From Octopus sinensis (Eukaryota): a stretch of DNA of 64,000 nucleotides. Below, piece by piece: positions 10,139-54,419 of the stretch. The position numbers and the translations under genes are program-made. Position 1 is the first letter of the stretch; the number at the start of each line of letters is the position of its first letter. The notes beneath the pieces are model-generated. The model made no database searches. It was not told where the DNA came from and saw only the letters and a list, made by a program, of their open reading frames with translations. The stretch is from assembly GCF_006345805.1 (NCBI RefSeq), contig NC_043010.1:40548001-40612000 (forward strand), written 5' to 3'.

Positions 10139-11206
10139 ATAACTTCGCGGTTCGCCATAGATAATCGATAAAATAACTTAGCCATTCGCCAAACATGATC
10201 GATTAAATACTTAGCGGTTGGCCAAAGAAATCGATAAAATAACATAGCGATTCGCCAAACATGATCAATTAAATAACTTAGAGGTTGGCCAAAGAAATCG
10301 ATAAAATAAGTTAGCGGTTCGCCAAAAGAGATTGATAAAATAACAACTCATTTGGCGAACTGCTAGGTAATTCTATCGCATCCCTTTGGCGAGCCGCTAG
10401 GTTATTTTATTGATATCCTTTTGCGAACAGTTATTTTATCGATCTCCTTTGGCAAACCGCCAAGTTATTTATCGTTATCCTTTGACAAAATGCTAAGTTA
10501 TTTTATCGATCACGTTTGGCGAACCGCTAAGTCATTTTATCCATAGCGATTGGCGAACAGCTACAGTTTTATCGATCTCCAAGGCGAACCGCTATCTTAT
10601 TTTATCGATCTCGTAGCGAACCGCTAAGTTATTTTATCGATCTCTGGCTAACCGCTAAATAATTTTATCGATTTGCTTTGGCGAACAACTAAGTTATTTT
10701 ATCGATATCCTTTGGCGTACCGCTAGCGTATTTTATCGATCCTGTTTGGCGAACTAATAAGTCATGTTATCGATCTCCTTTGGCGAACCGTTAAGTTATT
10801 TTATCGATTTTCTTTGGTGAACCGCTAGGGTATTTTATCGACCTTCTTTGACGAACCACTAAGTTATTTTCTCAATACTTTTAGCGAACCGCTAGTGTGT
10901 TTCATCGAACTCCCTTGGCGAACCGCTAGCTTATTTTATCGATCACCTTTGATGAACCGCTGAGTTATTTTATCGATATCTTTTGGCGAACCGCTAATTT
11001 ATTTTATCGACCTCCTTTGACGAACCGCTATGTTATTTTATCGACCTCCTTTGGCGAACCGCTAGGATATTTTATCGATAACGTTTGATGAACCGCTAAG
11101 TTATTTTTTCGATTTTGATTGGTGAACCGCTAAGTTATTTATTCGATTATGTTTGGCGAACCGCTTAGTTATATTATCGAACTTCTTCGAAGAACCGGTA
11201 AGTTAT
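10139..11206. repeat. 34-bp minisatellite with an internal inversion (~6 units one way 10139-10344, ~25 units the other way 10351-11206)
   Basis: Consensus TAACTTAGCGGTTCGCCAAAGGAGATCGATAAAA and its reverse complement. Confidence 0.92.
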
Positions 11207-11458
11207 CCCAGGCCTTGCACAGGCTTAAAATAGTTTATTATTGTTTTTTCTTCTTCCGGTATTAAAACCCGATTTCATTCTGGTCTATGCGGGCCACAGT
11301 TTTAAAGATGAGAAATTTTACCCTAGACGCTATGCCTTTCAATTGAGCAAACTCAAAGTTGCCATGCAAACTCGCTACCACTTTCAACATCAATCCAAGC
11401 ACATATGCACATAATATATATACATATATATATACGCATTATATATACATGTCTACAG

Positions 11459-11789: not shown

Positions 11790-11980
11790 AGACCGGTAAA
11801 ATAACTAGCGGTTCGCCAGAGAGCGATAAAATAACCTAGCGGTTCGCCATCAAGATCGATAAAATATTTTAGCGGTTCGCCAAAGGAGATCAATAAAATG
11901 GCATAGCGGCTCGCCAAAGGAGAGCGATAAAATAACTCAGCTGTTCGCCAATTGAGAACGATAAAATAACTTAGCGGTTA
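11790..11980. repeat. Third block (~5 units) of the 34-bp minisatellite, inverted relative to 10351-11206
   Basis: AAAATAAC(C/T)TAGCGGTTCGCCA..GATCGAT units. Confidence 0.9.
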
Positions 11981-18852: not shown

Positions 18853-19077
18853 TATTACTTTACTACCCACAAGGGGCTAAACACAGAGGGGACAAACAAT
18901 GACTGACAAACGGATTATGTCGATTATACCGACCCCAGTGCGTAACTGGTACTTAATTTATCGACCCTGAAAGGATGAAAGGCAAAGTCAACCTCGGCGG
19001 AATTTGAACTCAGAAGGTAACGGCAGACGAAATACGGCTACGCATTTCACCCGGCGCGCTAACGTTTCTGCCAGCTC
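18853..19077 (-). mobile_element. Meta-domain SINE monomer with Tx1-like tail (type 1) and 11-bp TSD
   Basis: TSD GCGTACTTATA at 18842-18852 and 19078-19088; tail TTGTCCCCTCTGTGTTTAGCCCCTTGTGGGTAGTAAAG. Confidence 0.88.
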
Positions 19078-19330
19078 GCGTACTTATAGTCTACTGATCC
19101 GTTATTGGTAGGATATACGAAAATTATTCAATCCAGTGAAAGATTAATATCATTTAATATACACAGGTCTGAAAAAAAGAACAAGCTACAATAAGTGACA
19201 TTCCTCTGATAATATACAAAAAATGCATGAGCTTGTATAGTGTGCCATGCATTTTTAGGCAAACATATAACTGCTCGTATTTAAAACCTGAGTATATTGA
19301 AAAATATAAGTAGATAGATAGATAGATAAG

Positions 19331-20714
19331 TTTCTTTATTGGCCACACAGGGCTGCACACAGATGGACAAGTTTACAGGTAGAGCTTTTCTTTTGGGGGA
19401 TGAAGAGAACAAAAAACAAAAGAAAAAAAAGGGGTGGCGTAGGTTTTCGATCAAGATGGATCGTAATAGGAAGAAAAGAACAAAAAACAAAAAAAATTGA
19501 ATAAAATAAAAATAATAAAGAAAAAAAAAAGAAAAGAAAAGGAACAAAGAAAGAGAAATGAAAAAAGAAGAAAAAGGGGAAAAAAAGGGAAGAGGAAAAA
19601 AAAAAGGAACGATCAATAGGGTATCGTGTATCACAGTGTTATGATATATTTGTAAAGGGGAAAGCAAGTAAGGTTTATGCGTGGAAGAAAAGCCTACGAA
19701 AAAGACCACGGTAACCTTGGTCAATATTGTTATATGTTACCACATTTGTTTGCAAGTGGGTACCCTCTGTTTTCAATTTCTGGGTTCATAGGATTATGCT
19801 CAAGGTGGCTTCGTCATTCATACGTGCCATGCTTGCTACATTCACCCATCTTTTTTTAAAACATTCGCTAGACAAACTTTGCCTCTCTACTCTCACTTTC
19901 CTTTTCAAGTGGTGACTTGAAGAAGTTGATGAGAGATTGACCAGAGAGGAAAGTGTTTGTCTCCAATCCTTTCAGACGCGTCCACCAGATACATTCTTTT
20001 TCGCCATAGCCACAAGGATGATGAAAATAGCTCTTCCTTCCCGTTTGAAGGAAGGAGGTGTGACAATATTGACGATAAACCGACTCGTCCCACACGTGAC
20101 AGCAGTTGTTCGACATAAGCCCACAGGTCGGAAATTGTTGGACACTGCACGAGTGCGCGCAGAACGGTTTCGTCGCTCTGACCGCATCTCGGGCAGGTCG
20201 GCCCCGTGTTTCTCGAGCCGTGTCTGTAGAGCTTATCCCGAACGGGTAGCGCTTCTCGTAACACTGCCAGGCCAGGGATCTCTGGAAGTTGTCCATGGGC
20301 CCTGGCCCGAAGTCGTCCTGAACAGGCGGGTCAGGTACTCCTCGTCGACGTCCAGGTTCGCCCCGAGCTCGTCGTCGTACCTCCCCTCCACTAATCCCCT
20401 GTAGAATGCTTTGGTTGTGTTGAAGTCACTCAAAGTCGACCCAGGACGGCAGAGTTGCTTGAGAGCAACGCGACACTCGCGGTGCCATTCGCCCTTCCTC
20501 GGCCTCTTTTTGATCCACGACTGCAGTTCGGTCATGGAGACGAGCTGCGGGAAAGCGTGCCTCACAAACGGCGACCACACCTGTTCACCGTCGTCTATAT
20601 AGAGCCAGAGATGTCGCAGTCTCAGCGCGTGTCTGCGCATCATCAACCACGGCATGCTCAGCCCTACTTTTAACGGGTGTTGACAGCAAATGGATCGCCT
20701 GACCATCGGGACGC
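19331..20714 (-). mobile_element. 5'-truncated L1/Tx1-clade LINE (C-terminal ORF2 + 3' UTR) embedded in (GATA)n
   Basis: PLKVGLSMP motif, LAW..ALPVRDKL, zinc motif CPRCGQSDETVL(R)ALVQC, terminal FKKRW; stop at 19786; ends GCCCTGTGTGGCCAATAAAGAAA then (TCTA)n. Confidence 0.85.
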
Positions 20715-39826: not shown

Positions 39827-40423
39827 CGGTGAGCTGGCAGAAACGTTAGCACGCCGGGAGAAATACGTACCCATATTTCGTCTGCCGTTACGTTCTGAGT
39901 TCAAATTCCGCAGAAGCCGACTTTACCTTTCATCCTTTCGGGGTTGATTAAATAAGTACCGGTTACGCACTGGGGTCGATATAATCGACTTAATCCGTTT
40001 GTCTGTCCTTGTTTGTCCTCTCTGTGTTTAGCCCCTTGTGGGTAGTAAAGAAATAGGTATTTCGTCTGCCACTACGTTCTGAGTTCAAATTCCGCCGAGG
40101 TCCACTTTGCCTTTCATCCTTTCGGGGTCGATAAAATAAGTACCGGTTACGCACTGGGGTCGATATAATCGACTTAATCCGTTTGTCTGTCCTTGTTTGT
40201 CCTCTCTGTGTTTAGCCCCTTGTGGGTAGTAAAGAAATAGGTATTTCGTTTGTCTTTAGGTTCTGAGTTCAAATTCCGCCGAGGTCGACTTTGCCTTTCA
40301 TTCTTTCGGGGTCGATAAAATAAGTTCCAGTTACAAACTGGGGTCGCTGTAATCAACTTGATCCCTTTGTTTATCCTTTTTTTGTCCCCTCTATGTTTAG
40401 CCCCTTGTGGGCAATAAAGAAAT
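39827..40423 (+). mobile_element. Trimeric Meta-domain SINE (one full + two headless 184-bp units, all with Tx1-like tail)
   Basis: Units restart at GTATTTCG at 40057 and 40241 after AAAGAAATAG. Confidence 0.88.
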
Positions 40424-47494: not shown

Positions 47495-47779
47495 CTACAG
47501 TAAGTCAATTACTTTCATTTTATTCGTTGCCCACTGTGTGTGTGCGTTTGCGTGTGCTGTAAACCAGACTAAGAAAAGCATTTGACACACACACCAGAAT
47601 GTGAGTTTTCTGTAAATTTTGCTTAACTGGAGTTTAAATTTTAAAAACTGGACCTGGCATGACGCGATGCATTGTACTCTTAAAAATGCAAGGTAAATTG
47701 TAATTGAAGAAATCCTATATTGTAGATTTGTATAACTCCCAAAGGGAGGCAGATAAAATCTGCCTTTTATAATAAGAGA
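47495..47779 (-). mobile_element. Helitron-like 5' terminal fragment (second family)
   Basis: Minus strand A|TCTCTTATTATAAAAGGCAGATTTTATCTGCC. Confidence 0.5.
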
Positions 47780-48358
47780 TATAATATAAGAATATATATA
47801 TATATCTTTATATATATAAAACTGAGAATGTGTGTCTGTCTGTCTGTGTTTCCCTAAAACTTGAGAACCACACAAACAATTTCATTCAAATTTTACACAT
47901 GCCTTACTTAGGGTCCGGGAGGTGTCATGGGCAAAAAGAATGTTCAACTTCCTGCCTAGAGCGAGCCCATAGCAATATCATATCTTCTCCACTATTTCAG
48001 TATTACGTGCTAAACGTGAAACAAAAACGTTTCTCTATTTTATGTCAGATACTTTCACTTTAACAATAAAAATAATAATAACAATTTAATTATATGTAGT
48101 AAGTAATAATTAAAATCAAACTAAAGTATAATATAATCGTAACATAACAAAAGTAAAAATAGCAATTGGTATAAAATTGCATCAATCACTTGAACGTGAA
48201 TAAGTGGTTTCACATGAATGGGAATAAATTAAAAATAAAATTAGCGTGCAGAAATGGAATAGACCAGATGGATAATAAAAAATTAAATTAAAGAAAACAC
48301 TATTGTCTATAAAGTATACAATGTAGAGAAAAAAGAAGATTTGAACAAGCGTCGGAAA

Positions 48359-50266
48359 TCTATCCACGTGTGTTGTGAGTTGTTTTGTATGTGAGGGTTG
48401 GAAAGGGGAACTGTTAAAAATTGTCAAAGGGTTGAGTCGCGCGAGGCGTTTGCCGCTGCGTGTTTGAACCTTTTATGGAGGGTGTGTCGACCCTCAAGTC
48501 GTGCAGACTTGCGCGGGGGTCGCCACAACAAAAAGTGACGAGTCTCTTGGAATAAAAGAGGTGTTCTTTGGAAAGGAACAATTGAAGGAGTGCGAGAGGT
48601 TCGTCAAGGGGGGGGGGTGACAGCGTGAAGCTGGTCCCGCCTGTGGAAACAGTGGAAGAGAGGAGTAGCGGGACGATAGCGTGTAGAACGCAAGATGGAA
48701 GCGCGTGGGGGCTGGTGGGAGTGACGATTGAAGAAATAGAGAAATGTCTGGGGGACATCATGAAAAAAGCGACTTTTGTAGACAGAGGAAAGAAATATGG
48801 TACGGTGGAGTGAGATGCGCAACAAAGGAAGTGGCGGCCTCATTGGCTTCCACTGTCCTGAAAGCGGAAAATTTCACCATGTGGCCGACGTATAAAGGAA
48901 GACGTGGGGTACGGGTAAGAGTCCCAAAGGTGCCCCCAGATATTAAAACAGAAATGCTGGTAACAGCCATTATTGGGGCAGCAAAAGAGGAAGTAGAAAT
49001 AGGGTCAATTAAGGAGAACGAACGTTGTAAATTGGAAGGAATTCGGATAGAGTTGTGGCTGATGGCCACAATGGAAGACATCGAAAGATTTCCCTTCCAA
49101 ATAGAAATAGAAAACGAGAAAACAATTAGTGTAATAGTGGAAGGCAGAAAACCGAATTGCTACCTGTGCGGATCAAGAGGGCACATAAAAAAGGAATGTC
49201 CGCTGTATGAATTCACAGCGGAGCAAAAAGAGACACAAAGTGGAGAGAAGGAAAACGAACACGAAGGAAAGAACAGCGAAAACAAGGAAAAGGAAATAAC
49301 GGAGAAACAACAAGAGAAGGGAAGTAACAGCGCACTGAAGGAAAATGAAAACAAAGGAAGAAGATAGTAGAAAAGGAGCAAAATTCACAGGGTGCAGAAG
49401 TAGTGGAGAAGGAGCCAAGGCAGAAGCAAGAGAAAGAAAAGGAAAGTACATTAAAGGAAAGAGAAAAAGCAGGAAAAGAACAAGAGAAGGAACAGAACCA
49501 AGAGAAAGGAAAAGATGGTATGCAAAAAGGAAAAGAAACAACAGGAAAGGAACTTAAGCACAGGGTAGAGAGACGGCAGACAAAGAGCCAAAAGACAAGA
49601 GAAGGAAAAGAAAGAGAGAAAGCAAAAAGAGAGAAAGAGAGAGACCGAGGGAGGAGAAAAAAGAGGAAGTAAGTCCTAAGAGAAAAACTAGAGAAAACGT
49701 AGGTACGAATAGAAAATTCAAATACTATGGAACGTTGATCCATCACAGGCACTGTGAGGAGATGGAAGATTTAATAAACGTAACAAACGGATATACGTGG
49801 GTCAGGATGGGCACCGAATGGAAAGAAACAGGTGCACTCGTCCACGAGAACGACGCCGAGGCGTTCATCGAGGCAGCTGGCAAGAACGTGTCAAAACATA
49901 TGAAATGCCGACTTACAAGGTGGCCTCGAACGATGGAAGTTTACTCAGATTTGGTAGACATAATGGAGTATATATAAAAGAAAAGGTATTGTGAAAACTT
50001 TAATTTGGAAATGATAAAAAGAACTTTAAATTCTGAAAAAAAAAAAGAAATGTTGAACTTTGTAAAACTTTTGAAATGTATGTTGAAAATGTATAAAATG
50101 TTTTATTTGGAAAATATTGTTGACGAATAAAAAACAAATGACGAAATGTAACCGCTCGATTTCGGGGATCGAGTGGGCATTACACCACATGTACAACTTC
50201 ATAATTCATTATTCATTTTCCCGATTATATTGTCCCATCTATGTAGCCCCTAGTGGGTAATAATAA
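48359..50266 (+). mobile_element. ORF1-only non-autonomous non-LTR retroelement, copy 1
   Basis: Starts TCTAT; single disrupted ORF; 3' UTR hairpin; ends TTGTCCCATCTATGTAGCCCCTAGTGGGTAATAATAAA; colinear with 50282-52037. Confidence 0.82.
48501..49977 (+). pseudogene. Gag/ORF1-like zinc-knuckle protein, copy 1 (start ATG->GTG, frameshifts)
   Basis: VRVRVPKVPPDI..VIVEGRKPNCYLCGSRGHIKKEC (CX2CX4HX4C), K/E-rich linker, C-terminal domain ending IMEYI*. Confidence 0.85.
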
Positions 50267-50281
50267 AACAAATGGAGGAAA

Positions 50282-52037
50282 TCTATGCGTGTTGTTATCT
50301 GTGACTAGACGGTGAAATTTTTTCTGTGTAACTTGATTTGATATCGCGCGTGGCGTTTGCCTCCACGTGTGGAAACCTTCCGAAGAAGGTGAATTGACCC
50401 TCTAGTCATGGCGACTTACGTGGGGGTCACCGGGAAAAATAACGATTCGTCGATAATCATAAAGGAGGTTTTCTTTGAGAAGGATAAACTCAAAGAATAT
50501 GAAAAGCTCTTCAAAAGGGAGGGTGATAGCGTAAAGCTAATCCCCCCCGCGAAAGCAAAAGAGGATAAAGAAAGCAAGACAGTGACATACAGAACCCAAG
50601 ACAAAAATACGAAGAAACTGGCAAGAGTGGAGATAGTCGAAATTGAAAAATGTCTGGGAGACATAATGGGGAAAATAACCTACGTGAGTAGCGGCAAGAA
50701 ATTTGGTACGGTGGAGGTGAGATGTGCAACGGAAGAAATTGCGGCATCACTGGCTACCACCGTACTAAGAGCCGAAAAATTCACAATGTGGCCCTCATAC
50801 AAGGGAAGAAGAGGGGTCCGGGTTAAAATCCCGAATATACCCCCAGAAGTGAAAACAGAATGGCTGGCAACAGCTATTCTAGGAGCAGCAGAAGAGGAAG
50901 TGGAGGTGGAATCAATTACGGAGTCCAACGCGGTAAACTGGAGAGGATATGGGGAAGAATTGTGGTTGATGGCCACAAAAGAGGATATTGAAAGGTTCCC
51001 ATACAGAATTGAAATTGAAGAGGAAAAAACCCTCAGCGTAATTGTAGAGGGGAGAAAACCAAACTGTTACTTGTGTGGGACAAGGGGGCACATAAAAAAG
51101 AGTGCCCGTTATACGAATTCGTAGCGGAGTGCGAGCAGAACTTGAAGAAAACAAGAATACTGTAAATGAGAAAGAAAACATAGAAAAGGAAACAAAACAA
51201 CAAGAGAAAGGAAATAATAAGTCAATGAAGGAAAAAGAAATAAAAGAAAAGAAAGAAATAGAACCAAAACAGAGTCAGGAAAAAAAAAAGGAAAAGAAAC
51301 AATAGGAAAAAACAAGAGAGAGATCAGAATCAAACGAAAAGAAAAGACGGCACACAAAAGGAAAAGAAAAGGAACATAAAACACGAGAGAAGAGAGAACA
51401 GAGAAAGAACCAAAAAGACAAGAGAAGGAAGGAGAAAGAAAAGAAGGCAAAAAGAGAGAAAGAGAGAAACAAAGAGAGGAGAACAAGGAAGAAATAAGCC
51501 CGAAAATGAAAATGAAGGAAAACGTAGGACGGAAACAAGATTACTATTACTACAAGTTAGTAACCTTCCATTTCTGCCCTGAAATGAAAGACTTGACATG
51601 TAAAACGGAGGGACATATATGGGTCAACAGGATGACCGATCGGTGGCAGGAGACTGCTCTAATCCCCGAAGAAAGAGTCGCTGAGTTCCTCAGAGCTGCC
51701 GGAGAGAGTGTAATATTTTACACGAAGGTTCGAGTGAGAGAGCGGCTGCCTGAGGGCTCAGTGATGGACTTCAGAGAAGTGGAAACTATGATAGAATATG
51801 TATAGAATTGTGAGAAGAAGAAAAAAAAAGAGAAAAAAGAAAATTTTGTGAAATATATGTGACGAAAATGTAACCTCTCGATTCCGGGGATCGAGTGGGC
51901 ATTTACATCTCATTGTAAATATTTTCATATGTCATTTTTTACTTTTATTTTTTCCTTTTCTTGTCATTCGCTTTCTTATTTTAAGTTCTCCGATTGTATT
52001 GTCCCATCTATGTTCGCCCCTTGTGGGTAGTAATAAA
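50282..52037 (+). mobile_element. ORF1-only non-autonomous non-LTR retroelement, copy 2
   Basis: Starts TCTAT; ends TTGTCCCATCTATGTTCGCCCCTTGTGGGTAGTAATAAA. Confidence 0.82.
50408..51805 (+). pseudogene. Gag/ORF1-like zinc-knuckle protein, copy 2 (frameshifts fall in A-runs, may be assembly errors)
   Basis: ORF 50408-51124 to CYLCGTRGHIKK(EC), K/E linker, ORF 51506-51805 ending MIEYV*. Confidence 0.85.
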
Positions 52038-52040
52038 ATC

Positions 52041-52340
52041 AAATGGAGGAAAGCACCTTCGAAAAGTGTCTTGGCGCGACTATGAAAGGTATCTAATCAG
52101 AGGCGGTAAATTCGCCACAATAGAAGCAAGGTTCGAGTCAACGGAGCGTGCAAGGGAGTACTCGACTCGAACTTGCAAAGTGGAAATATTTTATTTTTAC
52201 CTTTATATCTGTGACGTAGGACGTCCCGGAAAAAAAATTTAAATGCCCCATCCCCCAGAAGTAGAGGTAGGATGGATTGTAGCCACACTTCTATACAAGA
52301 GGGAGGACAAGATACAATTTATCGAAATTACAAGAGACTG
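52041..52340 (+). pseudogene. Right half of an older, diverged ORF1 homolog (left half at ~48270-48358) interrupted by copies 1 and 2
   Basis: Left ENTIVYKVYNVEKK.RFEQ joins right MEESTFEKCLG..RGGKFATIEARF..IPPEVEVGWIVATLL, aligning with copy 2 SKTVTYRTQDKNTKKLARVEIVEIEKCLG..GKKFGTVEVRC..IPPEVKTEWLATAIL. Confidence 0.75.
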
Positions 52341-52963
52341 GCTAACAATTCCAGTCTGTTATATATTTTGAGTATTGTTATCACTAGCGATATCAAGATG
52401 TAACTTTGTATTTTGTATATTATGTGTAGATGTATATATATCTAGATGTACATGTAATATGTACACATATATATACACATATATACATGCACTAGACTAT
52501 GACCCGGCAACGACGGATCTTTAATGCTAGTATATATATAAATATACATATAGATATAATACATATACAATACATATATATATATATATATACATATAAA
52601 TATATATATAATATATAGGTATATATATACATATAAATATATATATAATATATAGGTATATATATATATATAATATATATATATATAGATATATATATAT
52701 ATATATACACATATATGTATAAGATGTATTGGTATCTAGAAGACCCAAAGAGTGGCAGGTAATGAGTGCGATGGGCAGACCGTAGTTAAACTCTTGGTTC
52801 GATAGTGATACGAGTTAGGAGTCTATGTGGGTCTTGTATTAGCATTCATATATATATGAATTTTGTCTAAGATATATATATACACACTCACACTTACATC
52901 CACAAACACACGAACTCACACACGAACACACACATACATATATGTACATATATATATATATAC

Positions 52964-53017
<54 letters not shown>

Positions 53018-54419
53018 TATTCTTCAACCATGTGTACTGGACCTTATGAGAAGAATAGTGTCCAATATGTAATGGGTTATGTAAACTATGGATATTTCAA
53101 TTGCAATCCTTGTAAGATGAGTATGAGTTTGTGATTGTGCTTGTTTGTGTGTGTACACGAACACGTGTGTGTGTTGTGTGTGTGTGTGTGTGTTGTGTGT
53201 GTGTGTGTTTGTGTGGCTGCGCACATATGCATTTGCATGGGCAAAGGAGAACCTGAGTAATCGGTTTCCCGTTATGTCTTCTTCTATTCAATACGAAGAA
53301 TTATGTCGCAGTTACTTTAAAACTCAATCAGTTTTCCGTCCCAAATTTCCCTGTCAAAGACTCAAGAAACAACGATGCCAGGAATAATCAATCTTAGTTT
53401 CTTCTTGTATAAACTTAAAGATAAAATCAACAACTAAAAACATCGATTTATTGCCTGCATTTTGCTTTCAGTCGCGGTAAGTCAATCGATAGCAAGATTC
53501 TACAAAGATTTTGGAAGAATGCATTATCAAAAGCAACTTGCTTCTACTTCCATTCAGAAAGCAATTTCTCATTCAATCTTTCTTAATTGTTATATTTACG
53601 AAAATACCGTCTCAATTGTTAGATTTAACCCATCATATCATATTGCAGTTATCGATTTTTTTTACGGTGCATACATTATCGATTAAACACAGAGCTTTCA
53701 TACACAAAAACTTTATATACCCACATTGAAGTAAAACTGATCCATAGACGATTAAATCACAAGCCACTCCAGTAGATGTCTGGTATTTATTTTATCAATT
53801 CTTTTCATGAAAATCAAAATAACTTCTGTAGTCTTCGAAAGCAGAAATTAAAATTTCTTAACTAATGTAGTCGATGAGCGTGAAGATATTTGATTAGAGA
53901 CATACAAATGGTACCCATGCTGCAATAAATACAGAACCACTGAGGCGTTATCTCTCTCTCTTTCTCTCTCTCTCTCTCTTTCTCTCTCTTTTTCTCTCTC
54001 TCGCAGTATTTCAGCTCAGCATTTAAAGTTTCTTGACAGCTCAGCATTTAAAGTTTCTTGACTAAGGTAGTCCTTGGACACGGAGATATTAGCTCACAGA
54101 CGAACAATAGAAATAAATACATCATGCTTTATATTCAGACCCATTGATTAATATAGAATTAAAAACATCAGTTTTAGCAGTATTCGAACTCAGAAATTCA
54201 AGTTTGTTACCTAAACGCCACAAGATATTTTCCCGGTATTCCACTGTGTTAAAAATTATGAACATGAAATTTCACGGGCAGAAACGACTGAGAAACGACC
54301 AAACAAATTATATAGTGATGTTTTACTCTTTAGCTCGGCAATCTGAGTTCAAGACCCGTTGCTACCGACCCTACCGTTAAGTTTACTTAGATTCATGCAC
54401 TAATCTACGATGTGAAATA

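Follow-up and report, generated by a model that had tools for sequence, protein, structure and literature searches.

Clustered sense-strand A-to-G changes in an octopus ORF1-only retroposon: a probable genomic trace of ADAR hyper-editing

Retroposons at the locus

The window (the whole stretch of 64,000 nucleotides of Octopus sinensis DNA that was analysed) contains two non-LTR retroposons, copy 1 and copy 2, which follow each other head to tail and interrupt an older repeat (Table 1). The element represented by copy 1 consists of one ORF1-type frame with a zf-CCHC match, without endonuclease or reverse transcriptase (EN/RT) and without LTRs. Protein searches with this ORF returned 9 relatives, all annotated as Octopus vulgaris, and no longer homologs; the resemblance of its product to ZCCHC3-type RNA-binding proteins is considered as a lead only. 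No ribozyme match at the Rfam gathering level was found in 47500-53500. The start of the target repeat, at 47780-47830, presumably resembles a non-autonomous Helitron-type element.

Table 1. Features of the locus, in window coordinates
Feature	Position	Strand	Remarks
Target repeat, upstream half	47780..48344	+	ends in an older ORF1-like remnant (TIVYK)
Copy 1, full-length 1.93-kb ORF1-only non-LTR retroposon	48345..50271 (about)	+	97-99% identity to paralogs outside the tract
5' junction of copy 1	48345..48363	+	14/19 bases equal to the 3' junction (50268-50286)
A-to-G hypermutated tract (end of 5' UTR and ORF codons 1-73)	48382..48718	+	private changes relative to 29 paralogs
Gag/ORF1-like frame	48501..49977	+	RNA-binding domains, CCHC zinc knuckle, K/E-rich linker, C-terminal domain
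Conserved 3' UTR hairpin	50139..50200	+	common to copy 2
3' tail	50221..50271	+	common to copy 2 and to the full-length LINE of the same arrays (94% over 50 nt); looser in other octopus LINE/SINE ends
Copy 2, sister ORF1-only family	50270..52045 (about)	+	68% identical to copy 1, head-to-tail behind it, not hypermutated
Target repeat, downstream half	52041..52340	+	older ORF1-like remnant goes on

A 17-nt motif of the element has 125 matches in the assembly G000. Differences between the copy 1 and copy 2 families are concentrated at third codon positions (108, vs 38 and 34 at the other two), a bias that indicates selection on the ORF, which is intact (477-525 aa) in only 14 of 118 copies. Dispersed copies L006, L025 and L026 have target-site duplications of 15-18 bp and an A-rich end. 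Most copies sit at one short preferred site, present in the older ORF1-like remnant and at the element's own junctions, and this preference together with insertion at own junctions results in mixed head-to-tail arrays.

Arrays composed of several ORF1-only families and a full-length LINE were observed in the window (47780-52340) and at G000:C1:69.53 Mb (at least 9 units), C8:44.0 Mb and C14:23.86 Mb. The array insertion site lies within the older ORF1-like remnant, itself borne by another repeat, and the upstream half of the target repeat adjoins the element in 42 of 101 segments. Junctions (window 48345-48363; loci L002-L030) show a hypervariable five-base core between fixed ends, mostly the same at both ends of an insertion. 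The two junctions of copy 1 differ in 5 central bases and may be considered as an imperfect target-site duplication, the middle of which resembles junctions at other loci. A few source-locus bases are present at the 5' end of some dispersed copies and hint at read-through transcripts.

The full-length LINE of these arrays encodes APE endonuclease and RVT_1 domains (L228), and its ORF1 is homologous to that of the element (35% identity, E=3e-31). Frames are broken in both copies that carry ORF1, APE, RT and the common tail (L228:129-5150 and L092:1-5095). It is provisionally placed in the L1/Tx1 clade, a label derived from domain order, a CCHC-bearing ORF1 and motifs. This LINE is likely the autonomous partner of the element; the latter, an ORF1-only derivative, would be mobilised in trans in the manner of HAL1. 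A 45-nt motif of the same tail, at window positions 18860-18900, 19330-19370 and 40009-40054, ends an abundant LINE and SINE-like repeats; the abundant LINE with the common tail has a zf-RVT fragment at 19905-20330 and gave 1725 first-look candidates. Many octopus retroposons may thus have one common 3' recognition signal. The window also contains an array of 34-bp tandem units at 10338-11249, with an inverted counterpart at 11819-11973.

Definition of the hypermutated tract

Copy 2 is a poor comparator, because it is only 68% identical to copy 1. Since it represents a sister family, the subfamily of copy 1 itself was fetched from G000, and a change was considered as private when 85% or more of the 29 closest paralogs differed from copy 1 at that position. 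Over the whole element, 52 private differences were obtained. The tract accounts for 43 G-for-A changes, 2 extra G in G runs and 2 other substitutions (48504 and 48706), with no private change in the reverse direction (A-for-G); the remaining 1.5 kb holds 5 private differences, 1 of them G-for-A. Changed A sites amount to 42/121 in the tract vs 1/661 downstream (polymorphic sites left out; Fisher p=3e-36).

The same contrast was obtained with a single copy of the subfamily, L007. In 48585-48720 copy 1 differs from it by 24 G/A positions, 1 extra G and 1 T/A, with none in reverse, and in the control stretch 48820-49015 by 1 difference. Over the entire tract, 45 of the 48 substitutions relative to L007 are A>G, with A>T found once and A>C never, which is not the A-to-any-base pattern of diversity-generating retroelements (DGR). 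The initial annotation, which relied on copy 2, had counted 33 positions with G in copy 1 and A in copy 2 vs 5 in the opposite direction in 48585-48720, and a balance of 11 vs 11 in 48820-49015; the recount gave exactly these values, and 9 of the 33 were found to be subfamily divergence. It had placed the tract at 48501-48720. This tract is real and longer, beginning about 120 nt further upstream.

Among the first 73 codons of copy 1, 25 are altered, 20 of them non-synonymously. The start codon ATG has become GTG at 48501, three Tyr codons have become Cys (48511, 48592 and 48683), and a pure G run occupies 48608-48618, all as previously noticed. The frame of copy 1 is broken by single-base indels at about 48608, 48809, 49017 and 49049.

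From the sequence comparisons, the polarity of the changes is considered as settled: they are derived in copy 1 according to the 29 paralogs plus copy 2. The direction is thus A>G, and not the sense-strand G>A expected of APOBEC-type enzymes. The argument first used for polarity, namely the Tyr retained in the TIVYK motif of the older remnant, is valid and weak, as it concerns one residue of a remote ORF1 remnant. Three observations that the initial annotation had named as contrary to its reading did not occur: the G-rich version forms no subfamily, copy 2 is not a derived G>A version, and the spectrum against the subfamily is asymmetric.

Search for other hypermutated copies

A search with the edited stretch led to G000:C8:44.004 Mb, where another copy is hypermutated. 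Of its 73 rare differences, 69 are A>G changes, all at element positions 182-788 and none beyond; a looser count, including a few lineage variants, gave 74 changed A's out of 280. This copy lies in the middle of an array of three, in which both neighbours are unedited and the same junction of about 15 bp is found on either side.

Such a tract is present in 2 of 131 distinct copies (122 of which cover the 5' region), in a sample drawn partly by similarity. A motif count independent of editing agrees with this frequency (2/125): a motif requiring TGG in place of the TAG at 48696-48698 matched copy 1 and the second copy, the all-purine version having 125 matches, 100 of which were enumerated, and a motif requiring TGG instead of the TAG at 48548-48550 matched copy 1 alone. 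Two TAG-fixed motifs designed for the copy 2 family, the total size of which was not counted, had 0 matches. The edited-version motif for the abundant LINE had 4, all in old diverged copies with symmetric spectra. An all-against-all comparison of 113 segments (375,393 covered positions, copy 2 family included) revealed no further cluster of any mismatch type (T>C, C>T and G>A included). A density of 7-13 A>G per 200 nt was also seen in four copies (4/131), which were rejected as edited copies, since their G>A changes are equally numerous and they are subfamily mosaics. In these copies (L146, L154, L166 and L150) the zinc-knuckle region, at element positions of about 800-1130, has a mosaic composition that involves a diverged subfamily.

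The two edited copies fall in different sublineages. They share 18 edited sites, where 14.8-15.6 are expected from context alone (p=0.11-0.17). A common edited ancestor was therefore ruled out, and the two editing events are considered as independent. Neither edited copy has daughter copies. Within each of them, a single sublineage accounts for both the edited 5' part and the unedited 3' part, and no sign of a template switch between sublineages was seen in either.

These data also bear on the possibility that an edited cDNA fragment, of the same ADAR origin, overwrote the 5' end of an already inserted copy by cDNA-mediated gene conversion. Both tracts are 5'-limited with sharp ends, the two junctions of copy 1 differ in their centre, and the mosaics mentioned above occur among the copies, which speaks for gene conversion. 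The single sublineage of the 5' and 3' parts in both edited copies and the matching junctions of the second copy speak against it, and the junction mismatch of copy 1 would also be explained by a transcript leader replacing the junction, as judged from L006 and L025. Gene conversion is thus considered as improbable. The confinement of both tracts to the 5' side is only suggestive, with n=2.

Neighbour preference and candidate enzymes

In the two copies pooled, the editing rate depends on the 5' neighbour: 27/54 (.50) after U, 72/187 (.39) after A, 11/47 (.23) after C and 6/113 (.05) after G. The depletion after G (6/113 vs 110/288 for the other neighbours) has a p-value of 1.4e-12 and is significant in each copy alone (p=4e-4 in copy 1); the UAG context is edited in 15 of 20 cases. 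The 5'-neighbour preference of ADARs follows the order U>A>C>G. Upstream G depletion is reported as a rule common to all ADARs surveyed (PMC5625713). The 3' neighbour shows a weak lean to G (37/95, p=0.02 pooled; p=0.17 in copy 1 alone). Of the two preferences that the initial annotation had expected of ADAR, depletion of 5' G was found; for enrichment of 3' G, the pooled lean is weak. The 3' G lean fits a vertebrate-type rule and is mildly discordant with the assignment of invertebrate hyper-edited sites to an A-downstream group in the same survey (PMC5625713).

Spectrum, strand and 5'-neighbour rule hence agree with the proposal, already made in the initial annotation, of an ADAR-type hyper-editing fossil polarised to copy 1 and lying on the RNA-sense strand of the retroposon. 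Hyper-editing is described as exceptionally high in octopus (PMC5625713), and coleoid editing as hitting repeats in all tissues (PMC9068888). In G000, the adenosine-deaminase domain PF02137, which covers ADAT1 and ADAD besides ADAR, has 17 matches on 7 contigs. The match at G000:C2502:263721-264758 spans the full-length domain in one stretch with 6 stops, and may be an ADAR-family processed pseudogene.

If the LINE RT, late in first-strand synthesis, had misincorporated C opposite template A in a burst (e.g. at low dTTP), the result would likewise be sense A>G limited to the last-copied part, and no double-stranded RNA would be required; no duplex was found. Such a burst accords poorly with a spectrum restricted to 1 of 12 substitution types, with the 26-35% of A's that are changed, with a tenfold depletion after 5' G, or with the order U>A>C>G; moreover, the extreme 5' end is unaltered in the second copy, whose tract starts at position 182. 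Mutagenic RTs acting on template A, as in DGR, produce A>N and not A>G alone, which also counts against this mechanism, considered here as very improbable. The same low probability is given to deamination of DNA adenines on the sense strand during or after integration, either by ADAR acting on an RNA:DNA hybrid or by an unknown DNA adenine deaminase. This would produce the same context if the enzyme were ADAR, and would dispense with an RNA partner. First-strand cDNA is antisense, however, and its deamination would be read as sense T>C; in both copies the changes are A>G on the sense strand, with no T>C cluster. A regional process would be hard to reconcile with tandem neighbours and flanks that are unedited.

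Support from DNA-run contigs

Contigs from four DNA runs were compared with the locus. These runs possibly come from the source sample of the assembly, so they exclude a consensus error where they cover the tract and do not represent a second animal. In run X2, a 110-nt contig with a depth of 17.4 matches 48351-48460 with 0 mismatches; over the same interval the unedited copy L007 shows 15 differences, 14 of them G-for-A. A contig of run X3 (depth 22.1) has 17 differences from copy 1, which is exactly the number for the second copy, with the same pattern at the listed sites. Record 19 of X3 (window 48621-48735, depth 20.3, as for a single copy) is a third G-rich version, with 13 differences from copy 1 and, from the depth columns, 10 of the 15 G's of copy 1 in 48655-48712; its changes are for the most part a subset of the copy 1 edits. 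It has no motif match anywhere in G000, and may be a third edited insertion, an allele or the true version of the copy 1 locus, or a step of serial editing.

No contig of the four runs spans 48501-48720 of copy 1 itself, and the exact list of sites there rests on the assembly; consensus error is excluded only for the part of the tract matched by contigs. An assembly or polishing artefact might draw on this situation, as the 3' half of the tract is without an exact contig match, the X3 version differs there, and the second copy, which has G at 4 of the 7 sites lacking G in the third version, might have contributed some G's. Nevertheless, given the exact X2 contig, the faithfully reproduced pattern of the second copy, the three versions all with clustered G at ancestral A, and the enzyme-like context, such an artefact is scarcely credible. 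The tract of copy 1 is considered as a real and well-supported variant of the deaminase footprint in retroelements.

Search for a double-stranded RNA substrate

Self-BLAST and folding of an unedited copy revealed no internal helix above 17 pairs; in the folded copy, 30% of the A's at positions 30-790 are paired. No inverted partner copy was found in the window or in the 113 segments. The 10-kb flanks (16) of 8 candidate source loci likewise lack an inverted 5' region and have only short tail matches in inverted orientation. Among the copies examined, the nearest opposite-strand pair lies 430 kb apart. The true source locus may be absent from this assembly. Pairing in trans is a weak fallback, because sense-antisense (cis-antisense) duplexes are described as rarely edited in a systematic search (PMC13445718). 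The lack of an identified duplex, the 3' G lean, the imperfect duplication of copy 1 (14/19), the contig situation at 48501-48720 and the human-cell results cited below count against the ADAR reading.

Proposed course of the insertions

The reading retained here, considered as quite probable, is that an RNA hyper-edited by ADAR was reverse-transcribed into germline DNA, with inosine fixed as G. A source copy of the ORF1-only retroposon would have been transcribed, and about 370 nt at the 5' end of the transcript would have been engaged in a long duplex, in which ADAR would have deaminated about 35% of the adenosines, as the spectrum, the strand and the neighbour rule suggest. The endonuclease and RT of the partner LINE, presumably acting in trans, would then have started target-primed synthesis at the unedited 3' end of this RNA, reading inosine as G. 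Insertion would have taken place at the preferred target of the family, in front of copy 2, in a cell of the germline, as the single-copy depth suggests. The same sequence of events would have occurred independently at G000:C8:44.004 Mb.

The outcome would be that of a rare heritable mutator, affecting about 1.5% of copies, which generates ORF-dead copies and does not stop insertions, and this view is held with good confidence. The existence of a second independent case supports the heritable mutator proposed in the initial annotation, at about 2/131 copies. The restriction factor on retroelements proposed with it found no such support: neither edited RNA was prevented from inserting in its entire length, only some 1.5% of copies are affected, and even without editing the ORF is broken in most copies. 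A role of ADAR in restriction here is considered as unsupported, keeping in mind that edited RNAs destroyed before inserting would leave no trace.

Whether ADAR edits RNAs that subsequently insert has been an open question. In human cell assays, ADAR1 and ADAR2 restrict L1 independently of editing and L1 RNA showed no edits (PMC5224506, PMC8677026), and editing was seen neither in ectopic L1 RNA (PMC5224506) nor in de novo Alu inserts (PMC3415434), i.e. restriction occurred without editing and no edited inserts were obtained.

Comparison with known systems and implications

The closest analogues in genomes are the fossils of APOBEC 'DNA editing' in LTR retroelements (Knisbacher & Levanon, PMC4866542; Zaranek et al., PMC2873906). 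They share with the octopus case a strand-specific cluster of one mismatch type in a single genomic copy relative to its subfamily, attributed to a host deaminase acting during retrotransposition. The octopus case differs by A>G instead of G>A, by an RNA instead of a cDNA substrate, and by a non-LTR element in an invertebrate. In the LTR-element screen, clusters other than G>A and C>T occurred very seldom, and invertebrates served as negative control (PMC4866542).

ADAR hyper-editing of repeat RNA (Porath et al., PMC5625713; Albertin et al., PMC9068888) has in common with the tracts dense A>G, upstream G depletion, repeat targets and very high activity in octopus. It is described for RNA only, whereas the octopus changes are part of the DNA; a fold-back duplex, the usual substrate, was not found here, and the downstream preference departs slightly from the one given for invertebrates. 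As an ORF1-only, non-autonomous LINE derivative, the element resembles HAL1 (half-L1), as described in PMC5753468, from which it differs by an independent origin, a strong target preference and mixed head-to-tail arrays with its partner LINE.

No ADAR-edited retroelement copy fixed in a genome was found in the open-access papers searched; subscription papers or supplements may contain one. Retroviral proviruses hypermutated from A to G were reportedly described by Hajjar & Linial in 1995 and by Kim et al. in 1996. They are similar in that A>G was attributed to a double-stranded RNA deaminase and passed by reverse transcription into integrated DNA, and differ in that they concern exogenous retroviruses in cultured cells, whereas the octopus case is a germline-fixed endogenous non-LTR element.

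Two independent copies with a clean ADAR context imply that reverse transcription of edited RNA can occur and that its product can be inherited. A simple screen, comparing each copy with its own subfamily for sense A>G clusters and 5'-G depletion, makes the question testable in any genome. Such copies date germline ADAR activity, and they mimic hyper-edited RNA reads, which calls for caution in editing studies. The effect on the host is apparently small, with 2 of 131 copies and no daughters. In a broader reading, to which about even chances are given, octopus germline ADAR would be a general RNA-to-DNA mutagen of non-LTR retroposition, with some 1-2% of insertions of susceptible families carrying tens of ADAR-patterned substitutions. 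As the counterpart of APOBEC footprints at the RNA level, these would preserve ADAR activity and specificity in a fossil record that can be dated, and their 5' confinement would point to an undescribed 5' duplex in array-forming elements.
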